Positions 6,257 to 32,997 of a DNA stretch of 33,063 bases are shown here, one piece after another. Position 1 is the first letter of the stretch; each line of letters begins with the position of its first letter. The notes beneath the pieces were generated by a model. It searched no databases and was not told where the DNA came from. It worked only from the letters and a program-made list of their open reading frames with translations. A program made the translations under genes and the position numbers. The DNA is from Candidatus Micrarchaeota archaeon CG1_02_49_24 (GTDB taxonomy: Archaea; Micrarchaeota; Micrarchaeia; Anstonellales; UBA8471): assembly GCA_001871535.1 (NCBI GenBank), contig MNVF01000038.1, forward strand, positions 1 to 33,063, given 5' to 3'.

Positions 6257-7432
6257 ATGATTATTTTAGACCTAGACGTAAAGAGGCATGAAGCCAGGGT
6301 CAGCGACGCCTCCAGCGTTGGCCAGCTGGTCAATGGCTGCTATGGCGAAATGGTGAAAGGCACCATCCACCTGACCCCGGAGGAAGCGCTCTATCTCATG
6401 GACATACGCAATGCCAGGGCATTTGACGAAAAACTCAACGAATATTCGTTCAACCAGGTGGCAGGCCTCTTCAAGGTGCCTAAGCTTATCCCCCGCTACC
6501 TGACCTATAAGGATTGGAGGGACAGGGGCCTCATTGCCCGCAATTTCAGGGATTTGGCAAGGCTCAACGAGCGCTTCAACAAGGACGTGGTGGCAAACTA
6601 CCCGCACTCTGAATTCCAGCCAAAGCAGTTCTCAGTTGACGGCATGTTCTTCAAGGACAGCCTCATGAGCGTAATCGATGAGGAAAATGCAGGCCGGGAG
6701 CTTTACAACACATATTGGATAGGCCAGTACGGCACCTACAAGGCAGATGCCCGCGGCAAGCTCCTGAAGCTGGATGTATACGAAACCCTTTTCCTGCTCA
6801 GGCATTTCAATTTCAAGCTGGTGAATTCAGATGAAAAAGAGGTCCTGGCAACTGCCAGGGGCCACAACAAGGACTTCCCAAGCCTTTATGATGTGTATGA
6901 GGACTGGCGGCTCAGGAACTTCATACTCAAGACAGGGTTCAAATTCGGCACCCATTTCCGGGTCTATTTCCCTGGCGCCAGCCCGGCAAAAAGCGGCACA
7001 GACTGGATGCATTCCAAGCACGTGATACACGTGTTTCCAAGGAAGAGCAAGCTGCTCATATCCGAATGGGCGCGGGCAATCAGGGTGGCCCATTCAGTGA
7101 GAAAGACGTTCATACTTGCCATCCCAGGGGAAAAGGCAAAGGGCGAAAAGGAAGTCAGTGAGCTGGATTTCCTGCTCTATCACAGGAGAAAGGAGGGCAT
7201 TGAGACGCCGCGGGAGGGCAAGCCGAAATACCTAATGTTTTCGCTCTCTGAGGAAGAGTTCATAGGCGGTGCTGAGCTTGCCAATGCGATTGAATTCTGC
7301 AAGAAAGCCGGCCTTGGCCTGATGCTTGCCATTGCGGATAGGGAGACCAGCGTCACCTACTACCTTGTGAGAAGGATTGACCTGAAGGGAAGCAAATACG
7401 GATATTATGAAATTGGATGGTACCAGCCGTAA
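6257..7432 (+). CDS. endA: tRNA-splicing endonuclease, single-chain multi-unit form (resembles the three-unit epsilon-type described for ARMAN archaea)
   Basis: The central catalytic unit is GFKFGTHFRVY...HSKHVIHVF...AHSVRKTFILAI (Tyr/His/Lys). An N-terminal unit has LTPEEALYLM and YKDWRDRGLIAR. An extra C-terminal structural unit ends in LMLAIADRETSVTYYLVRR. At 391 aa it is roughly twice a homotetramer-type subunit. Confidence 0.85.
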   Translation: MIILDLDVKRHEARVSDASSVGQLVNGCYGEMVKGTIHLTPEEALYLMDIRNARAFDEKLNEYSFNQVAGLFKVPKLIPRYLTYKDWRDRGLIARNFRDLARLNERFNKDVVANYPHSEFQPKQFSVDGMFFKDSLMSVIDEENAGRELYNTYWIGQYGTYKADARGKLLKLDVYETLFLLRHFNFKLVNSDEKEVLATARGHNKDFPSLYDVYEDWRLRNFILKTGFKFGTHFRVYFPGASPAKSGTDWMHSKHVIHVFPRKSKLLISEWARAIRVAHSVRKTFILAIPGEKAKGEKEVSELDFLLYHRRKEGIETPREGKPKYLMFSLSEEEFIGGAELANAIEFCKKAGLGLMLAIADRETSVTYYLVRRIDLKGSKYGYYEIGWYQP

Positions 7433-13204: not shown

Positions 13205-13262
13205 AGCTCGACGAACAAGGTTCGCCGATAGCTCAGCGACTATTGTCGCTGATGTGCACGCA
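13150..13262. repeat. Tetraloop mini-hairpin array (family B) overlapping the 5' end of the 11111..13204 gene
   Basis: The string is tcaacc-tgtt-ggtcga, then ttga-atgtccc-tttg-ggacat, then agc-tcgacgaac-aagg-ttcgccga (imperfect), then agc-tcagcgac-tatt-gtcgctga. The same ttgaat and agc junction words occur at 16519-16573 and 21097-21145. Confidence 0.7.
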
Positions 13263-13426: not shown

Positions 13427-16159
13427 CTATGACCTTACCAATTCGCTGAGGAATTGGTTTCCAGCCGTCTGAGTGTCAGCTGCGGTCTGACCGGCAACAA
13501 CGATTACGTTGCCAATCTTCTTCACAACTACACCCTGGGTTGCAATGTCCACAGAGCTGCCTGCCAGTGCGTCTGCAGAGACTGTGCTGACCGCCGGACC
13601 ACCAACTGAGATGACCAGGCCAGCCGCGTCAGCCGCTGAATCCATCACTACCAAGCTGTCTGCAAGCTTGTATGGCACAGTGGTTGTGACCTGCGCCACA
13701 TTGTCGGGCAGAATCACTGCTGTCACAGCTGTTGAATCAACTGTGCAGCTTGCTGCGCCTGCACCGCCTGCCGAGCATGCTCCGAGCGTCTCGTCAATGC
13801 TCTTCACCTTGATTTTCACGCCGTTTGAAAGGGTCTGTTCTGCCCCTTCCTTGAGCGTGTAGGTGTCGCCAGAGATCGCTGCCGTGCTCTGTGTGCTAAG
13901 GGTCCACTTCACGTTTGCCACTCTCTTGGCAATCTTGAAGTCTGCAGAGTCTGACGTCATGTCCCTGAACTCAGAGCCTCTCACTGTTATGAAAGGCGCA
14001 TCCGGGTTGGAGGTGATGGTCGGGACATCTGCGGACGGGCTGATGCCATACAGGATTGACTTGGTCGCTGAGCCAGTCGGAAGGATTCTCTGCGTTGCAT
14101 TGAAGTCCGCCGTGCTGGTTATGTTGAACGACATGTTGCTCAGGGCGGTCATCGTTGTACTCCCTATCCTGCCTGCGTCCTCATAGATATTCACCTGAAG
14201 GCCGCCTGTTCCCAAGCCTGCGCCGATAGATGTGGTATCAGTCGCACCCGCAGCATTGCCCCACTTGAACTCAATGGCACCGGTTGTGATGCCTACCGGA
14301 GTTCCGGAGATGAGGTCGCCTGCTGTCCTGTATTTCACGTATTTCCTCGCGCTAGTGTAGGTACCATCGGTAGTTGCTGTTGTGCCGGTGGTTGTTTCCC
14401 GTATCGGATATGCCGCATAGTTCGTGCAGGACGGAGACGTCTTTGCATAAATGGTGCCGGTCCGCGGATCAACATAGAATGTAGTTACACTATCAAATCC
14501 CACTTCAAAATTACCGGTGCTCGTGGTAACCTTCACAAGAGCATTGCTCAATGTGCTAGCTGCATCATTGCTGTTGGTGCAGGCGACCGCTGTAGAGCTG
14601 TTCAAGCCCGTGATATTCTGGACCATCAGACTTGCGTCGGTCTCAATGCTGAAATGCAGCGCGTCCTTCTCTGCCTCAGTCAGGTCAGACCCGCCAAACG
14701 TGAGCTTGAACGTGTCCGGCTGCTTTAACAGAGTGAACGAATCACCTGGAACCATTCCAGATTCTCTCGTGTCATAGTAGATGGTGATTTCCCTCAACGC
14801 ATCTACGTTGTCAGCATTGGCCCAGCTGGTTGGGGATGACTGTATGTTCCTGTTTTTCCAGCCAAGATAGACCTTGTAGCGGACGTTGTCTTCATTGTCA
14901 ACCGCCTGGCCATTCTGGAGCGTCAGCTCCTCGCTTAGGACTGCAATTTCAGCCCACTTCGCGGCGAGGGTAACACCGGCTGCTGTTTTATAAATGTAGA
15001 TTTTCGCAATCTTTCCGCTCGGCGTCTTGTATGAGAAGGTAGAGCCGACGGAAATCTTGGTCTGGTCCAGCAGGTTGTCGTTGGCATCCAATATGTCAAC
15101 GATGGCCGGGTGGGCATTCTCAGCGCCTTCTGCGACTGAAATATCAGCTAGGCGCACCTTGATTTCTCCAGCGTCAATCACTTCGCCGACTGAAATGATC
15201 TTGTAGCTAGACTCTTTTGCAAGGCGGATTGAGCCACCGCGGCTGATGCCACTGTTTGTGGTGGTATTGCCAATGCCGGATGTCGTGCTTACTGGCTGTG
15301 ACATGCCGGTCAGCACCCACTTCTCACCGAGGAACCAAATCCTCATGCGGTGGTTTGCCGTCGCATCAGAGCTTGTCGTTGTGCAGTTACCATAGTAACC
15401 GTCGGCTGGGTTGGTTGCCGTGCACACCGGGATACCATAGTCATCGTTGGTGAACCGGATGGTGTAAGCCAGATTAGTCATCTTGCCTTCCAGGCGGTTA
15501 CTTGATGTAGAGTATTTGTTCTCACCGGATACCCAGATGAACTGCTCTTCCTTATAGACATTGTCCGACAAAGCGGATTTCGTGTCCTGGATAGAGTCAG
15601 TCTTGAGCACTGGGAATTCACTTGACGAGACCTTCAAGACACCAAGGTCTATTGCTGCAGCACTGTCCATTGCCCGTGCAAGAGAGTTTATCTCAGAGCT
15701 TGTGTCAGAGGTAGTTTGGTTGTATTGGTCCTCTGGATTGACACGCTGCCTATTCTTCAGAGTTTTGTCGACATAGTCATGAATTGTTGTCACTATGTCA
15801 TAGGTGCCTGCTGTCACGCCTGGGATGGTAACTTCCAAAGTCACGCTCTCGTCAAGCACAGCGCATGAACCCTGTTGCCCTGCTGTTACGGTTGGCACTG
15901 CACAAGTAGCATCGCCACTCGTTCCAGCGGTCAATGTTGCTGCTTTGTATGCCTCATTGGCAAGTCTTGCAGCAATATTGGCGGCAACGACACCATCGCT
16001 TATTGCGGCTTTTGTTCCGACAGCGACCTTCGCCACCGGTTGGCCGTTATCATTTACGAGCGTGGTATCCTCGTATTTTACTGCGCCGAAAACTGCAGAT
16101 ATGCCTAACAGGCCCATACCCGCAACCACGGCTAATTTTCTTATATCTATGCCTTTCAC
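13427..16159 (-). CDS. Candidate S-layer or major surface glycoprotein
   Basis: The 910-aa ORF has an N-terminal signal-like segment (LAVVAGMGLLGISAVFGA), a Thr/Ser/Asn/Gly-rich composition and no internal TM. Its GTG start is preceded by a strong GAGGTGA. It is the first gene of the surface operon. Confidence 0.6.
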   Translation of the reverse strand: MKGIDIRKLAVVAGMGLLGISAVFGAVKYEDTTLVNDNGQPVAKVAVGTKAAISDGVVAANIAARLANEAYKAATLTAGTSGDATCAVPTVTAGQQGSCAVLDESVTLEVTIPGVTAGTYDIVTTIHDYVDKTLKNRQRVNPEDQYNQTTSDTSSEINSLARAMDSAAAIDLGVLKVSSSEFPVLKTDSIQDTKSALSDNVYKEEQFIWVSGENKYSTSSNRLEGKMTNLAYTIRFTNDDYGIPVCTATNPADGYYGNCTTTSSDATANHRMRIWFLGEKWVLTGMSQPVSTTSGIGNTTTNSGISRGGSIRLAKESSYKIISVGEVIDAGEIKVRLADISVAEGAENAHPAIVDILDANDNLLDQTKISVGSTFSYKTPSGKIAKIYIYKTAAGVTLAAKWAEIAVLSEELTLQNGQAVDNEDNVRYKVYLGWKNRNIQSSPTSWANADNVDALREITIYYDTRESGMVPGDSFTLLKQPDTFKLTFGGSDLTEAEKDALHFSIETDASLMVQNITGLNSSTAVACTNSNDAASTLSNALVKVTTSTGNFEVGFDSVTTFYVDPRTGTIYAKTSPSCTNYAAYPIRETTTGTTATTDGTYTSARKYVKYRTAGDLISGTPVGITTGAIEFKWGNAAGATDTTSIGAGLGTGGLQVNIYEDAGRIGSTTMTALSNMSFNITSTADFNATQRILPTGSATKSILYGISPSADVPTITSNPDAPFITVRGSEFRDMTSDSADFKIAKRVANVKWTLSTQSTAAISGDTYTLKEGAEQTLSNGVKIKVKSIDETLGACSAGGAGAASCTVDSTAVTAVILPDNVAQVTTTVPYKLADSLVVMDSAADAAGLVISVGGPAVSTVSADALAGSSVDIATQGVVVKKIGNVIVVAGQTAADTQTAGNQFLSELVRS

Positions 16160-16419: not shown

Positions 16420-16447
16420 TTAAACCTTAAACTTTAGACCTTAAACC
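16420..16447. repeat. Four tandem heptamers: ttaaacc ttaaact ttagacc ttaaacc
   Basis: Read directly from the sequence. It abuts the duplicated 3' end of the Cdc48-like gene. Confidence 0.7.
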
Positions 16448-16450
16448 TAT

Positions 16451-16614
16451 TTCCTCTCCCCGTAAGTCTTCATGTTGATGAAACTGAAGAGAGCTTCGCT
16501 GCTCACGCATGCATGCTCTCATTCTGTTTGAATGCACCTGCGGATGCATAGCTCGGCGACTGTTGTCACCGATTCCCCAAGCCCCTTCACTTCCTCTCCC
16601 CGTAAGTCTTCATG
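16451..16614. repeat. 24-nt perfect direct repeat (16451-16474 and 16591-16614) flanking a 116-nt hairpin-rich insertion at the 3' end of the Cdc48-like gene
   Basis: ttcctctccccgtaagtcttcatg occurs twice, 140 nt apart. Both copies encode ...MKTYGERK followed by a stop (TGA at 16587, TAG at 16447). Confidence 0.8.
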
Positions 16615-19600
16615 AATGCATAATAAGCCTGCAACATCTCTAAGGAAATGGATGGCCGCCTGCCCTTTATCACTGCAAATATCTCTGCCATTGAGAGATG
16701 CGGTTCAATGCCCCTCAGCTTTTTCTTCACCATCTCAAGCTTGACCCCCTGGCAGATTGAGGTGATGTCTGCCGCCGAGAAGCCCTCAGTCAGCCTGCTG
16801 AGCTCATCATAATCAATGACTGCCCCTGCCGCCACACCCTCAAGGTTTCTCTGGAAGATGTTGGCCCGTGCTTTCAGGTCAGGCGGTGGGATGAACACTA
16901 TCTTGTCAAACCTGCCGGGCCTCATGAGCGCAGGGTCGAGAATCTCCGGCTTGTTGGTGGCGCCTATGAGAAGCACGTTCTTGAGCTCCCGGACCCCGTC
17001 AAGCTCGGAGAGCAGCTGGCCGACAAGGCCGCCATCTGAGAGCTCACGGGAGGGCGCCACAGTCTCAATCTCGTCTATGAATATGATGGCAGGCGCCTGC
17101 TCCTTGGCGCGGTTGAATGTTTCTTTCAGCACCCGGATGCTGTTGGCATAGCCCTTTTTGAGCAGCTCGGCACCTGAGAGAAACTGGAAGGTGGCCTTCA
17201 ACTCATTGGCGGCAGCCTTGACTATGAATGTTTTGCCGCACCCTGGAGGTCCGAATAGGAGCATGCCCTTGTAGGGCTTGACCTTGTACTGCTCCATCAA
17301 GTCCTCGTGGAGAAGCGGCAGCTCGATGGCATCCAGGAGAATGGTCTTCACCTCATCCAGGCCGACCACGTCTGCCCATCTCACAGCATCCTCTTTTTTC
17401 TTTTCCACCTGGCGGCCGACTCTCCTTTCGAAATCAAGCCGGAACTGCTCGTATTCCTCGAGCTGCTCCAGGCCGACGCTGGGCCTGACGTTGTCCAGCA
17501 CCCGCAGGAGGTGCTCCATGGTGATGGGCAGGATTTTGTTCTGCTTTGACGCGTCGGCGGCTGCAAACCGCGCGGCTTCCCTGCACACATTGGCTATATC
17601 AGCGCCCGAGAACCTGTCGGTTTTCTTTGCCAGGAGGCCAAGGTCGATATTTGCCGTTGGAAGCTTGCTCAGCTGCACCTTGAAAATGTCCTTTCTTCCT
17701 TCGGGGTCAGGCAGCTTCATATAGATGATTTTGTCGAACCTGCCGGGCCTGAGAAGGGCGGCATCAAGCATATTGGGGACGTTGGTGGTGCCTATGACCA
17801 TCACGGGCTTGGTTGCGCCCTTGTAGCCGTCAAGCTCTGTGAGAAAAACGGACATTACCCTGGGCGCCACGTCGTCTGCGCTGTAAAGCTCGCGCTTTTT
17901 CCCAATGGAATCAATCTCGTCAAAGAAAAGGATGGAGGGCGCGTTTTCCCTGGCGACCTTGAAAATTTCCGCGACATTTTTCTCGCTGTTGTGGGCAAAG
18001 ATGCCGCCGAACCCGCCAGCGAAATTCTGGCAGGGCTCAACTGAGATATCGTAAACGAATTCCTCATCGGCAACCTGCCTTATTTCCTCAACCCTGTCCC
18101 AATAGATGTCGCCATTGACCACTTTTTCAAGGCTGGTGGATGATGCACCAAGCTTTGTATGTTTCATCAGAAGAATTTGCCTGCCTATGGTTGCCGAGCC
18201 TGCCTCAGAATATTTCTTAAGGTTCCGGAAGACCCATTCCTTCAGCTCGCCGGAGAGCGGTATCTGCACATCGCGGTGCCAGGAACCGGCCTCAAGCGCG
18301 CATTCATACCGCTTGTTCCGCATATCATCCAGAAATCCTATCTGCCCAAAACCCCGGAAGGGTTCGCCGGTCAGGAAAATGCGATACATAAGGGCGCCGC
18401 TCCATTCCATTTTTTCACGCACAGTGGCAACGATGCCGAAATACAATAATAGATATAGAAGCTGGCTGGCAAGGGTTTTGCTGGCAGTGCAGGCCTCGAC
18501 AGTGCCAATTCCTTTCTGATTTTCATAAACCGTGCCATCGCCAGAGAAATAGCCCCTGAGAAAGGCGGCAAGCCTCAGCCTGTCAAGCGAGAACACGGCA
18601 ACTGGCGCCTTCTTCCTCTCAGCACCATGCTCAAGCCCAAGGAAATGCCTCATGAAAACATAAAGCACCCTACCTGGGATATATATGTCGCGGCCCCTGC
18701 CGACGCCACGAAAGTTTTCAGTTTTGGAGTTTCCAGTCTGGGAGTTTTGACTCTCTTCCCTTTCTTCTCCCGAGGGTCTTCTTTCTGGGAAAGAAGAGGC
18801 TCTTTTCTTTTCATAGATGATTATTTTGCCGAAAAGCTTTGCGCATAGTTCGGCAATCTTTCCGAGCTGGCAGTCAGAGGTGCTTACCCTGACCGTGTCT
18901 TCCCGAGTGTAGCTGCCCTCTGCAACCCACAGGCCGAGAAAGAGCGCCAGCTCTCCATCAAGCTTGATTATGCCCGGCAGGCCTTTGCAGGCGCCCTTTC
19001 CTGTGCAGACCAGGATTTTACTGCTGTCATATGAAATGCCGGTGCGCTCCATGAGTGCAATGAACCTGCCGGCCGGCAGTGAAATTTCCTTTTCCCTTGA
19101 CAGAATGTATTTCAAGTATTTGGTATTTTTTAGGCCGAGAAGGATATGTGTTTCGTTTGCGCCGATTTTTTCAACAGCAAGTTTTACGTAATCTCTGACT
19201 CGAGTTACCCTAAGGCCATAATCCGCATGTTTCAGGCTGCCGAGAAAATCAAGCTGCCCAACAGGTGCACTGGGAAACTCGACTCTGGAGGGGATTGCGA
19301 TGTATGAAAAACCCGCCTTGAGTTTTGAGGTTTCAATGCTCTTCACTGAGCTGCCGTCTATAGTGAATAGGGAATGATAACCGGTAACGCGAATTCTGCG
19401 GCCGCTCCTCGTGCGCACTTCGTAAATGGGGGATGTGCATTTGTGTTTTATGTGGCCGGCGATTTCGGCAAACACGGCTTTCCCTTTTTCGTCGAAGCTC
19501 AGAACTTTGGCATCCCTCCTTTGCTCAACAATTTCTCCAATCTTTGCAAGCTTTACCGCACCGTTTTCCATTATCATGATTTCCTCATCGTATGGCAGGC

Positions 19601-20912
19601 TTTCGCCGTACCATTGAGATAAAAGCTCTGAAGTTTTCACATTGTAGAAGCCATAGCTCATCTCCTTTGAGAGAGCGCGCATCAGCATGGTTTTGCCTGT
19701 TCCGGGCGGGCCGAAAAGAAGCACGCCGCTGGGCGGCTTTATGCCGTAGGTGAAGCTCAATTCCTTGTGAAGGAGCGGTGTGATGATTGCCTCGCGCAAC
19801 TCTGCCTTCACGTCATTGTAGTTGCCCACATCATCAAGGGATTTTTCAGCCGTTGACTCTGCCATGTCCTGGACGCCGAACTTGCCGAACTTCTTTGTCT
19901 TCCGCCTGCGCTCAATCAGGCGCTCCCTGCTAAGGTCAACACCGCAGAAGTCAAGCAGGGCCACAATGGCAATCGAGATTACTATATATATAACAGAAAC
20001 CGCAGAGAACATGAACGGCACGCCAAATGCGCTCAGCAAAAGATTGGCCGCAGGCACTCCTAAGAGGGAGAGCGCACCCACGGTCTGCTTCCAATTGCTC
20101 TTTATATTGCCAGGCAGCCAGCCTGCAAGGAACAGGATTGCCCCCCAAAGAAAAATGTGGAGAAGGCCTGAGTCGGCAATGAACAGCTTAAGCATATTGT
20201 CAGCAATTTTCCCCAGCGATGGGGTAATCTGCTTCAATATTATGTCATAGGAGAAAATTGAAACCACAGATGCGGCTGCCTTGGATGGGAGTTCCAGCAG
20301 GCCCACCTCTTCCCTGATGTCATGCTGGAGCGCATCAATCTTCGGGGTGAACTGGCCCAGGTTTGTGATAGGCATGAAGGCGCTGTTCTGCACTATCCAG
20401 AGCGAGGACAGGAGAAGGATTAAACAGACAGCCGGGATGGAAATCACAATACTCCGCTGGGAGCCGGTGCGGAAAGCCCCGAGCACCATGAGCAACGGCA
20501 CAAACCCGGAAAGCAGCGAAAATGGCAATGGCGCAAACGGCGCGCACACGATTATTTCAAGGAATGCAATGACATCCCAGTCTTCATGCATCTGGAATAG
20601 GACAAGGGAGATAATTAGCATAAACGGCCATACGAATAGCGGCGCCTGATAGGAGAGGGCAGGAATTGCGAATATTATGCCCATGATTATGCCAACCTGG
20701 GGAAACCTGTAGGCAGCCAGGCCGCAGGCGAGCGCAAGCAAAAATGAGATGTAAATAGGATAGAACTGGAAAAGCACGAGAAGATAGAGCGCGCCCAGGA
20801 AAATCAGCACAGCATTGCCGAGCTCCTTGTTCTCCTGAAGGGATTGTAGCGTTGCCCTGACCTTCTGCTCGGACATGGTTGCGGATTTCAGTTGTTGTGT
20901 TGAAGCGCTCAC
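16587..20912 (-). CDS. Membrane-anchored double-AAA+ ATPase (Cdc48/VCP-like D1+D2) interrupted by an intein
   Basis: About 330 N-terminal residues form multiple TM helices. D1 has Walker A GPPGTGKT and Walker B ILFFDEIDS. D2 has GPPGCGKT and IIFIDEIET. SRH-like and arginine-finger regions follow each domain. Confidence 0.85.
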   Translation of the reverse strand: MSASTQQLKSATMSEQKVRATLQSLQENKELGNAVLIFLGALYLLVLFQFYPIYISFLLALACGLAAYRFPQVGIIMGIIFAIPALSYQAPLFVWPFMLIISLVLFQMHEDWDVIAFLEIIVCAPFAPLPFSLLSGFVPLLMVLGAFRTGSQRSIVISIPAVCLILLLSSLWIVQNSAFMPITNLGQFTPKIDALQHDIREEVGLLELPSKAAASVVSIFSYDIILKQITPSLGKIADNMLKLFIADSGLLHIFLWGAILFLAGWLPGNIKSNWKQTVGALSLLGVPAANLLLSAFGVPFMFSAVSVIYIVISIAIVALLDFCGVDLSRERLIERRRKTKKFGKFGVQDMAESTAEKSLDDVGNYNDVKAELREAIITPLLHKELSFTYGIKPPSGVLLFGPPGTGKTMLMRALSKEMSYGFYNVKTSELLSQWYGESLPYDEEIMIMENGAVKLAKIGEIVEQRRDAKVLSFDEKGKAVFAEIAGHIKHKCTSPIYEVRTRSGRRIRVTGYHSLFTIDGSSVKSIETSKLKAGFSYIAIPSRVEFPSAPVGQLDFLGSLKHADYGLRVTRVRDYVKLAVEKIGANETHILLGLKNTKYLKYILSREKEISLPAGRFIALMERTGISYDSSKILVCTGKGACKGLPGIIKLDGELALFLGLWVAEGSYTREDTVRVSTSDCQLGKIAELCAKLFGKIIIYEKKRASSFPERRPSGEEREESQNSQTGNSKTENFRGVGRGRDIYIPGRVLYVFMRHFLGLEHGAERKKAPVAVFSLDRLRLAAFLRGYFSGDGTVYENQKGIGTVEACTASKTLASQLLYLLLYFGIVATVREKMEWSGALMYRIFLTGEPFRGFGQIGFLDDMRNKRYECALEAGSWHRDVQIPLSGELKEWVFRNLKKYSEAGSATIGRQILLMKHTKLGASSTSLEKVVNGDIYWDRVEEIRQVADEEFVYDISVEPCQNFAGGFGGIFAHNSEKNVAEIFKVARENAPSILFFDEIDSIGKKRELYSADDVAPRVMSVFLTELDGYKGATKPVMVIGTTNVPNMLDAALLRPGRFDKIIYMKLPDPEGRKDIFKVQLSKLPTANIDLGLLAKKTDRFSGADIANVCREAARFAAADASKQNKILPITMEHLLRVLDNVRPSVGLEQLEEYEQFRLDFERRVGRQVEKKKEDAVRWADVVGLDEVKTILLDAIELPLLHEDLMEQYKVKPYKGMLLFGPPGCGKTFIVKAAANELKATFQFLSGAELLKKGYANSIRVLKETFNRAKEQAPAIIFIDEIETVAPSRELSDGGLVGQLLSELDGVRELKNVLLIGATNKPEILDPALMRPGRFDKIVFIPPPDLKARANIFQRNLEGVAAGAVIDYDELSRLTEGFSAADITSICQGVKLEMVKKKLRGIEPHLSMAEIFAVIKGRRPSISLEMLQAYYAFMKTYGERK
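17988..19601 (-). mobile_element. 538-aa intein with a LAGLIDADG homing-endonuclease domain, inserted in AAA+ D1 between Walker A and Walker B
   Basis: The host junction is WYGE|S...FAHN|SEKNV, which restores the canonical GESEKNV. Block B is RVTGYHSLF. The two LAGLIDADG motifs are LALFLGLWVAEGS and LAAFLRGYFSGDGT. The C-terminal block is VYDISVEP..NFAGG..IFAHN followed by Ser+1. Confidence 0.85.
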
Positions 20913-20959: not shown

Positions 20960-21290
20960 GGACTAGATTCACAGGTATCAGATTTTACGAAGAGCCCATC
21001 GAGCAGACTTTGTCTGTTTGAGCTATCGCGCAACAGCACGATTCAATCGGCGGCAGCAGTCGGCGAGATTTTCACCCGCAGGTGAAAAGCCAGCAGGCAA
21101 TCGGCGGCAGCAGTCGCCGAGCTATGCACCATCTGGTGCATTCAACTGTCAGCAAGGCTGACAGTACACAGATTGAGCCTGTTTGAATCGACCTGTTGGT
21201 TGATCAGATTTTCCGAAGAGCCTCTCTCGCTGATGCGAGAGACCCTGCACAATGTGCAGGGTATGAAGGCTCATTCGGAAAATCTGATAA
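20960..21290. repeat. Hairpin-dense divergent intergenic region (families B and C)
   Basis: Hairpins seen are cagac-ttt-gtctg (21004-21016), ttttcacc-cgca-ggtgaaaa (21069-21088), tgcacc-atct-ggtgca (21125-21140), ctgtcag-caagg-ctgacag (21146-21164) and tcgacc-tgtt-ggttga (21188-21203). The direct repeat caatcggcggcagcagtcg recurs 55 nt apart. Confidence 0.75.
21203..21281 (+). repeat. 79-nt perfect repeat, copy A (family-C three-way-junction element)
   Basis: It is identical to 32919-32997. The fold is cagattttccgaagagcc-[tctctcgc tgat gcgagaga]-[ccctgcac aatg tgcaggg]-tatgaa-ggctcattcggaaaatctg. The closing stem extends to 21287 in this copy. Confidence 0.9.
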
Positions 21291-23106: not shown

Positions 23107-23204
23107 GTAAAGTCCCTATCTTGCCAACCACTTCATCTCTATTTCCTCGGAATACAGGGTGTGCACGAGCCCGGTAAAGTCCCTATCTTGCCAACCACTT
23201 CATC
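23107..23204. repeat. 31-nt perfect direct repeat (23107-23137 and 23174-23204) bracketing 36 unique nt
   Basis: gtaaagtccctatcttgccaaccacttcatc occurs twice with a 67-nt offset. Confidence 0.85.
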
Positions 23205-32918: not shown

Positions 32919-32997
32919 ATCAGATTTTCCGAAGAGCCTCTCTCGCTGATGCGAGAGACCCTGCACAATGTGCAGGGTATGAAGGCTCATTCGGAAA
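32919..32997 (+). repeat. 79-nt perfect repeat, copy B (family-C element)
   Basis: It is identical to 21203-21281 and lies upstream of the 31583..32833 gene. Confidence 0.9.

Follow-up and report, generated by a model that had tools for sequence, protein, structure and literature searches.

A polymorphic insertion with an unusually long target duplication at the 3' end of a Cdc48-like ATPase gene in a Candidatus Micrarchaeota archaeon

In Candidatus Micrarchaeota archaeon CG1_02_49_24, the last codons of a Cdc48-like ATPase gene are present twice, on either side of a short stretch of hairpin-forming DNA. This arrangement raises the question of how the duplication was generated, and whether it means that hairpin modules of this genome are mobile. 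The sequence analysed, referred to as the window, is a stretch of 33,063 nt of contig MNVF01000038.1. It belongs to a DPANN archaeon of groundwater and aquifer metagenomes, and the genes around the insertion have housekeeping functions. The event at the gene end is a genuine and polymorphic insertion whose target duplication is unusually long; it provides no evidence for transposition of hairpin modules.

The duplicated gene end

The 24-nt sequence TTCCTCTCCCCGTAAGTCTTCATG, named R, forms an exact direct repeat (family D10 of the repeat finder); its copies are 140 nt apart from start to start and enclose the 116 nt of insert I (Table 1). The chance expectation for such a pair in 33 kb is about 5e-8 by our own calculation. 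In gene orientation R reads C ATG AAG ACT TAC GGG GAG AGG AA, and the proximal copy continues into the insert with G TGA, while the distal one is followed by A TAG. The translated ORF terminates with ...AFMKTYGERK-TGA, while the distal copy reads MKTYGERK-TAG, the old gene end being found 140 nt downstream of the present one; the only difference between the two MKTYGERK copies is the third base of the Lys codon (AAG vs AAA), outside the 24-mer. Insertion of this DNA with its first four bases G TGA, together with the duplication, leaves the protein unchanged; the chance that an insert starts with a purine and a stop codon, as preservation of the protein needs, is about 2% (own calculation). The initial annotation had described the repeated MKTYGERK codons with their TGA and TAG stops, the perfect 24-nt duplication around 116 nt, the hairpins in between and the regeneration of the C-terminus by the duplication. 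The codons and stops are exact in sequence and translation, the duplication was confirmed by sequence and repeat finder, the hairpins were reproduced by folding, and the regeneration is borne out, as the proximal R with G TGA leaves the protein unaltered.

The protein encoded by the target gene has about 330 aa of polytopic membrane sequence at its N-terminus, and further contains two AAA domains and a 538-aa intein with a LAGLIDADG domain; Pfam matches are AAA (twice), AAA_lid_3, Intein_splicing and LAGLIDADG_3. In this protein the membrane domain replaces the Cdc48 N-domain, and the intein, with its LAGLIDADG homing endonuclease, splits the first AAA domain (extein junctions ...SQWYGE/S...FAHN/SEKNVAEIF). 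The homing endonuclease was considered as a cause of the gene-end event and ruled out, its site being about 1.4 kb from the 3' end of the gene. No relative above 63% identity was found in the protein database. The orthologues from Micrarchaeota (L004-L014), with 50-57% identity, are informative on conservation of the C-terminus, although not on empty sites. Nearly all of them end with ...YGERK/N/V-stop, indicating that the C-terminus of this essential-looking gene is under constraint.

Table 1. Positions in the window of the features discussed in the text
Feature	Position	Strand	Remark
ATPase gene	16587..20876	-	1429 aa, membrane-anchored double-AAA (Cdc48/VCP-like) with intein; from translation and Pfam; 3' end is the insertion target
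Polytopic membrane domain of ATPase	19880-20876	-	N-terminal ~330 aa
Intein of ATPase	17988-19601	-	538 aa
Proximal R copy	16591..16614	-	1 nt of Phe, codons M K T Y G E R, AA of final Lys
Present stop TGA	16587..16589	-	within inserted DNA; insert starts G TGA AGG in gene orientation
Insert I, 116 nt	16475..16590		hairpin DNA of the genome's intergenic repeat families
Two-hairpin module, 45 nt, inside insert	16530..16574		missing from 71-nt short variant in other samples
Distal R copy	16451..16474	-	original gene end, now non-coding; sole copy in empty allele
Original stop TAG	16447..16449	-	after distal R; used in empty allele (X11 contig joins 16450 to 16591)
Boundary motif CTTCATGA	16608..16615	+	over repeat/flank boundary; same motif, same register at second insertion site
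Second event: 31-nt repeat, 36-nt insert, 31-nt repeat	23107-23137, 23138-23173, 23174-23204	-	repeat finder family D9
Repeat protein, 223 aa	22580-23318	-	broken by the second event
Relatives of insert modules	21111-21145, 13228-13247
Tandem hairpin array	21044-21138		intergenic
Hairpin-array DNA missing from an X15 contig	20996-21100		upstream of ATPase gene
86-nt element	21203-21288, 32919-32997		two copies in the window
AGACCTTAAACTTTAAACC-like motif	16425-16449		intergenic
S-layer-type gene (PF05124)	14160-14844

Alleles and copy number in groundwater populations

Public groundwater sequencing runs (X runs; X2 is SRR1534154, PRJNA229517) were analysed through their Logan contigs and unitigs, whose k of 31 is longer than the 24-mer, so that junction k-mers are diagnostic. 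Unitigs for the flank-repeat-insert (A-R-I) and insert-repeat-flank (I-R-B) junctions are present at chromosomal depth in X1-X7; thus, the duplication is no artefact. An empty site was found in X11, where a contig of 572 nt carries one 24-mer and the TAG stop, and a minor empty allele is present in X3, X5 and X7, with unitigs that end at 16474 and start at 16591. This bears out the insertion bounded by a target duplication that the initial annotation had proposed, together with its expectation of a single 24-mer in the empty site. The annotation's worry about mis-assembly proved right for the copy number, which is collapsed in the assembly according to the I-R-I junction contigs, and not for the duplication itself, which the junction unitigs show to be real. 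A short, 71-nt variant of the insert is present in X3, X6 and X12, as revealed by unitig joints that skip 45 nt. The 24-mer is absent from JGI metagenome contigs, and none of the RNA and Nanopore runs has the locus; a bulge-helix-bulge intron or another RNA-level explanation is ruled out, since the variation is seen in DNA libraries.

The junction between insert end, 24-mer and insert start (I_end-R-I_start, or I-R-I) is found at 0-3x chromosomal depth across runs; in X2, the depth of its unitig is about 51, versus about 17 for the flanks. When the R+I_start and I_end+R unitigs are compared with the flanks in depth, the unit/flank ratio is ~1 in X4 and, for the short unit, in X6, ~2 in X1, X5 and X7, ~2.7 in X3 and ~3.6 in X2. 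These junctions and the excess of depth indicate that the 140-nt unit is amplified, as a tandem array or possibly as a circle, while the assembly shows only the one-copy form; indeed, R-I-R is 164 nt, longer than both reads and assembler k (127-141), and units are not countable in any assembly. Isolated cycles are also present, one of 140 nt in X11 and one of 95 nt in X12, made from the short insert; in both runs 16590 is joined to 16451.

A single position distinguishes two forms of the unit. Position 16514 is T in the window and in the assemblies L001 and L002, and C in the R+I_start Logan unitigs of every run examined. The contigs of the three assemblies pass directly through A-R-I-R-B at k = 127-141, and every 127-mer of R-I-R contains position 16514, so that the one-copy T allele is real and separable from the C units. 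The C units may be arranged in tandem within part of the population, or may form an array or circle of their own; tandem arrays are favoured because X2 has an excess of junctions with no empty site, because circles of 95-140 bp are physically and technically implausible, and because the hairpin arrays of this genome expand in tandem anyway. The locus resembles minisatellites (VNTR) located between direct repeats that flank palindromes, with a 140-nt unit in 0 to several copies and length variants; both a head-to-tail unit junction and copy-number polymorphism were found, the array probably being linked to this locus. However, a minisatellite accounts for expansion and loss of the unit, not for the origin of the first R-I-R. 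On the practical side, the gene end is a collapsed repeat of variable copy number, which breaks or misleads short-read assemblies.

A second insertion and the proposed origin of both

The 31-nt repeat at 23107-23204, which the initial annotation had taken as a further sign of hairpin-module movement, is a second true insertion, as the empty site of L001 shows; its insert is an unstructured copy of a fructose-1,6-bisphosphatase (FBPase) gene fragment, and it contains no hairpin module. The exact 31-mer GTAAAGTCCCTATCTTGCCAACCACTTCATC is found on both sides of 36 nt, and the event interrupts a 223-aa repeat protein after residue 47 of the window translation. L001, an independent assembly with 99.9% identity over 24 kb, contains the 31-mer only once and has the 223-aa ORF uninterrupted, while the filled form is present in JGI contig L087; the second event is recent, polymorphic and gene-disrupting. 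The protein itself contains three repeats of about 30-37 aa, with a weak match to RHH_1, and is broken by 67 inserted nt.

A DNA scan identified the donor of the 36-mer, with exactly matching ends, in the FBPase gene of contigs L085, L086 and L088; no donor emerged from a peptide search. The donor is intact, and folding indicated that the 36 nt are unstructured. The donor locus contains archaeal housekeeping genes (diphthamide synthase, SOD, ThiM, ThiE) and has the GC content of this genome; it bears hairpin modules with 100% identity, and its depth tracks that of this genome in four runs (3.5-3.9, 16.9-18.4, 6.2-6.6 and 7.9-9.3). All these features match, and thus the 36-nt insert is a copy of the organism's own coding DNA; a donor on a foreign, more abundant replicon is ruled out by the direct depth comparison. 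The insert at the gene end is own DNA as well, although no exact donor was seen for its 116- or 71-nt form, the closest copy having 5 mismatches in 56 nt. The old gene end and the 36-nt insert share 10 nt, GAGGAAATAG, no more than chance would give.

Microhomology at the four junctions of the two events is 0, 0, 0 and 0-1 nt; they are blunt. Both empty targets have the motif CTTCATSA at their right-hand boundary on the plus strand, with the boundary between S and the final A. On the two strands of the window together (66 kb of strand), CTTCATSA matches only 4 times, and 2 of these matches are exactly on the target boundaries; the chance of this is about 1e-3 after allowing for comparisons, by an own estimate that is post hoc and based on two events. 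The opposite target boundary, 24 or 31 nt from the motif boundary, shows no conservation. CCG precedes both donors, a faint hint of a PAM. Close direct repeats of at least 16 nt are absent from L085, L086 and L088, except for one within a module array; a 29-nt close repeat in another member of the Micrarchaeota (L012) is internal to the TBP gene and not a comparable event.

To our knowledge, prokaryotic genomes very rarely show target duplications of 24-31 bp around short pieces of own DNA joined bluntly, and we know of one well-documented source, Cas1-family integration, whose natural off-target events have so far been supported only circumstantially. Here two events are available from an uncultivated symbiotic archaeon; for each an empty-site allele exists in natural populations, and for one an exact donor, which makes the question of mechanism testable.

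The preferred reading, with a probability of about 0.5, is that both events arose by staggered-cut integration, or capture, of short pieces of own DNA, with fill-in generating the 24-31-bp duplications. At the gene end, a short duplex fragment copied from the same genome would have entered the last codon of the ATPase gene; the original insert may have been the 71-nt hairpin form, with the 45-nt module added later. The two strands would have been cut 24 nt apart, and filling of the gaps would have duplicated these 24 nt as a target-site duplication. The upstream R and the G TGA of the insert would have recreated by chance the Lys codon and a stop; with ...YGERK intact the allele could persist, and preservation of the C-terminus would reflect selection, as survivorship, and not design. 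The same process would have placed 36 nt of the own FBPase gene, with a 31-nt duplication, into the repeat-protein gene 6.5 kb away. The putative integrase would read the CTTCATSA boundary, between S and A, and set the second cut by a loose yardstick of 24 or 31 nt. Later slippage or unequal recombination between the 24-mers flanking the hairpin DNA would then have produced alleles with 0, 1 or several copies of the 140-nt (or 95-nt) unit. The difference between the first event, neutral and widespread, and the second, gene-disrupting and not fixed, is best read as survivorship.

A Cas1-type enzyme is a candidate for the integrase, to which we would tentatively assign about half of this probability; it is favoured because members of the Cas1 family are the only known makers of duplications of this size. 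In vitro, Cas1-Cas2 of P. furiosus integrates off-target at paired repeat-like sites 30-31 bp apart (PMC6698737), and in E. coli new arrays, called 'neo-CRISPR', can arise from off-target integration (Nivala et al. 2018, as cited in bioRxiv 10.1101/148544). CRISPR loci (Cas12f2) are present in some Micrarchaeota, and cas1, cas2 and cas4 can be part of Cas12f loci (PMC7229846). In such off-target integration, a short duplex, often of self origin, is bluntly attached to opposite strands at two staggered sites, and fill-in duplicates about 30 bp of a non-CRISPR target, whose border motifs are shared with the repeat; a similar course is proposed for the events described here. Blunt, homology-independent junctions and a recurrent border motif were indeed found here, in two events and post hoc. 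The geometry of the second event, a 36-nt insert with a 31-nt duplication, is exactly this one, and its insert agrees with the spacer length of about 30-40 bp. Conversely, the first event, with an insert of 71 or 116 nt and a duplication of 24 nt, is off the spacer ruler.

Casposons offer a second comparison. The casposase, a homologue of Cas1, makes duplications of 15 bp, and its yardstick is lost at non-cognate sites (PMC5137440). Casposons share with the course proposed for the present events staggered nicks, a long duplication, insertion beside the 3' end of a conserved gene and a yardstick relaxed off-site; however, they are kb-sized elements with terminal inverted repeats and duplications of 14-15 bp, whereas the inserts here are 36-116 nt long, without inverted repeats and mutually unrelated.

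Several observations count against the staggered-cut reading. The events are only two; the first insert, at 71 or 116 nt, is two to three times as long as any normal Cas1-Cas2 spacer; the duplications are unequal (24 vs 31 nt); and the donor of the second event is intact, so that the fragment would have been copied or derived from another genome copy. No cas gene, CRISPR array, casposase, integrase, transposase or recombinase is present in the 33-kb window, and neither cas1 nor cas2 in L085-L088. Overall, the locus behaves as if off-target action of an integrase had been succeeded by minisatellite dynamics, and its placement in any named family is tentative.

A more far-reaching proposal, which we regard as rather doubtful, is that a trans-acting integrase, Cas1-like or of an unknown kind, inserts short own DNA at sites of the CTTCATSA type (joined between S and A) throughout the chromosome, with 24-31-bp duplications, and that the gene-end locus is a seed that grows into a regularly interspaced array or cycles through a small circle jointed by the 24-mer. 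If so, the locus would be a natural snapshot of the birth of CRISPR-like arrays or of new satellite families; if the two events are repair accidents, they are ordinary polymorphism.

Alternative origins and the hairpin repeats

The main rival of staggered-cut integration is replicative template switching of the FoSTeS/MMBIR type, which we consider unlikely. A stalled strand would copy 36-116 nt elsewhere and return 24-31 nt behind its point of departure, with no need of nuclease or integrase. Both inserts are indeed copies, and the donor of the second is intact; moreover, hairpin arrays pack this genome and are likely fork stallers, module-level indels are frequent, and the 36-nt donor segment both begins with CGGGC and is followed by CGGGC. 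However, template switching predicts microhomology, and the four junctions show only 0-1 nt; nor would random fork collapse be expected to leave one 7-nt motif at the corresponding boundary of both targets.

An att-type system is improbable. It would consist of a 140-nt (or 95-nt) circle carrying the 24-mer and recombining site-specifically with the chromosomal 24-mer, with integrated, empty and free circular forms. The X11 data have this appearance, as the empty site and the isolated 140-nt cycle are present at similar depth (3.4 vs 2.8) and with no A-R-I junction; the 95-nt cycle of X12, the I-R-I junction of X2 at about three times chromosomal depth, and the C at 16514 in the amplified units, against the T of the contiguous one-copy allele in three assemblies, are also consistent with it. 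On the other hand, a duplex circle of 95-140 bp is hard to form, unable to replicate and rarely enters shotgun libraries; X2 has no empty site despite its excess of junctions, and a minor strain with a multi-copy tandem array gives the same graph. The second event involves an unrelated 31-mer and an unrelated insert, and the first joining of the 24-mer to the insert is left unexplained. In its flanking direct repeats, restored gene end, and empty and 'circle-junction' forms the locus is similar to att elements of tyrosine recombinases; it differs in the absence of an integrase gene from the window, in the 116-nt size of its insert and in the unrelated repeat of the second site. The att-type event restoring the gene end that had been suggested in the initial annotation is therefore a weak explanation, the duplicated sequences being unrelated and the inserts non-coding fragments.

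Highly improbable is also the transposition of the hairpin module as a non-autonomous element, MITE- or REP-like, that would generate target duplications of 24-31 nt. The 116-nt insert does consist of hairpin DNA of a multi-copy family. Its folding z-score is -4.4 for the gene-sense strand and -2.1 for the other, two mismatches becoming G-U pairs in the gene-sense fold; its k-mer depth is 5-30x that of the flanks according to depth profiles, and relatives of its modules are present inside the window (Table 1). Its 45-nt module and the 45-nt tandem unit of L088 (TRF period-45 consensus, 6361-6610) are members of one family, the hairpin families are abundant and polymorphic, and the insert end CCCCAAGCCCCTTCAC is found again at another locus, in a paralogous copy beside an unrelated flank. 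As in REP/BIME and MITE hairpin repeats, the insert is a mosaic of short imperfect palindromes from multi-copy families, which form tandem, polymorphic intergenic arrays. Known REP and MITE mobility produces duplications of 0-10 bp; here, differently, the long duplication is not tied to hairpin modules.

Indeed, the second insert with a long repeat is unstructured FBPase coding sequence and contains no module. The 45-nt module gains and losses observed elsewhere in arrays have a junction ambiguity of only 2-3 nt, indicating that hairpin modules are gained and lost without long repeats; an example is the module at 21084, present in L002 and L087 and not in the window, with an ambiguity of only 3 nt. 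The insert ends, TTGATGAAAC... and ...CCCCTTCAC, are not terminal inverted repeats, nor is one insert related to the other. Around the paralogous 71-nt copy the flanks are unrelated and show no long repeat within the visible 30 nt, and no transposase is present in the window. The claim that hairpin modules move by a mechanism that makes long repeats was consequently not upheld, in view of the unstructured FBPase insert, the module indels with repeats of only 2-3 nt and the missing terminal inverted repeats. As for the nature of the modules, the 116-nt insert is without coding capacity, the whole window has no Rfam match at gathering score, a module 21-mer gave no match in a scan of genome contigs, and IMG/VR viral contigs contain neither the module patterns nor the 36-mer.

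Finally, an assembly artefact, with the duplication present in no real molecule, has a negligible probability: many assemblies do break in these repeats, with the NCBI MAG contig beginning at 16538, the JGI contigs lack the 24-mer and copy number is collapsed, but at least seven independent runs have A-R-I and I-R-B in k=31 unitigs at chromosomal depth, three independent assemblies agree, and the 24-mer is shorter than every k used and cannot have caused false joins.

Other repeats and variable regions were observed in the same contigs. Intergenic tandem hairpin arrays, with periods of 45, 54 and 99 nt, are found in L088 (6266-6612) and in the window; their hairpin modules are joined by conserved linkers such as GCATAGCTCG. 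In a contig of X15, the hairpin array upstream of the ATPase gene is shorter by 103 nt, and the joint carries no repeat. A separate element of 86 nt is bounded by perfect inverted repeats of 15 nt (ATCAGATTTTCCGAA...), which enclose two hairpins; it is present twice in the window and also in L085, L086 and L087. The copies at several loci are 100% identical, and thus the element looks like a recently active MITE. The AGACCTTAAACTTTAAACC-like motif of the window is also present in L088 (6750-6775); both occurrences are intergenic, upstream of genes, and in opposite orientations. The S-layer-type gene (PF05124) shows a cluster of substitutions and two 3-nt indels with respect to L001, while the rest of the 24 kb differs by only about 0.1%; the PF05124 gene encodes a locally hypervariable surface protein.
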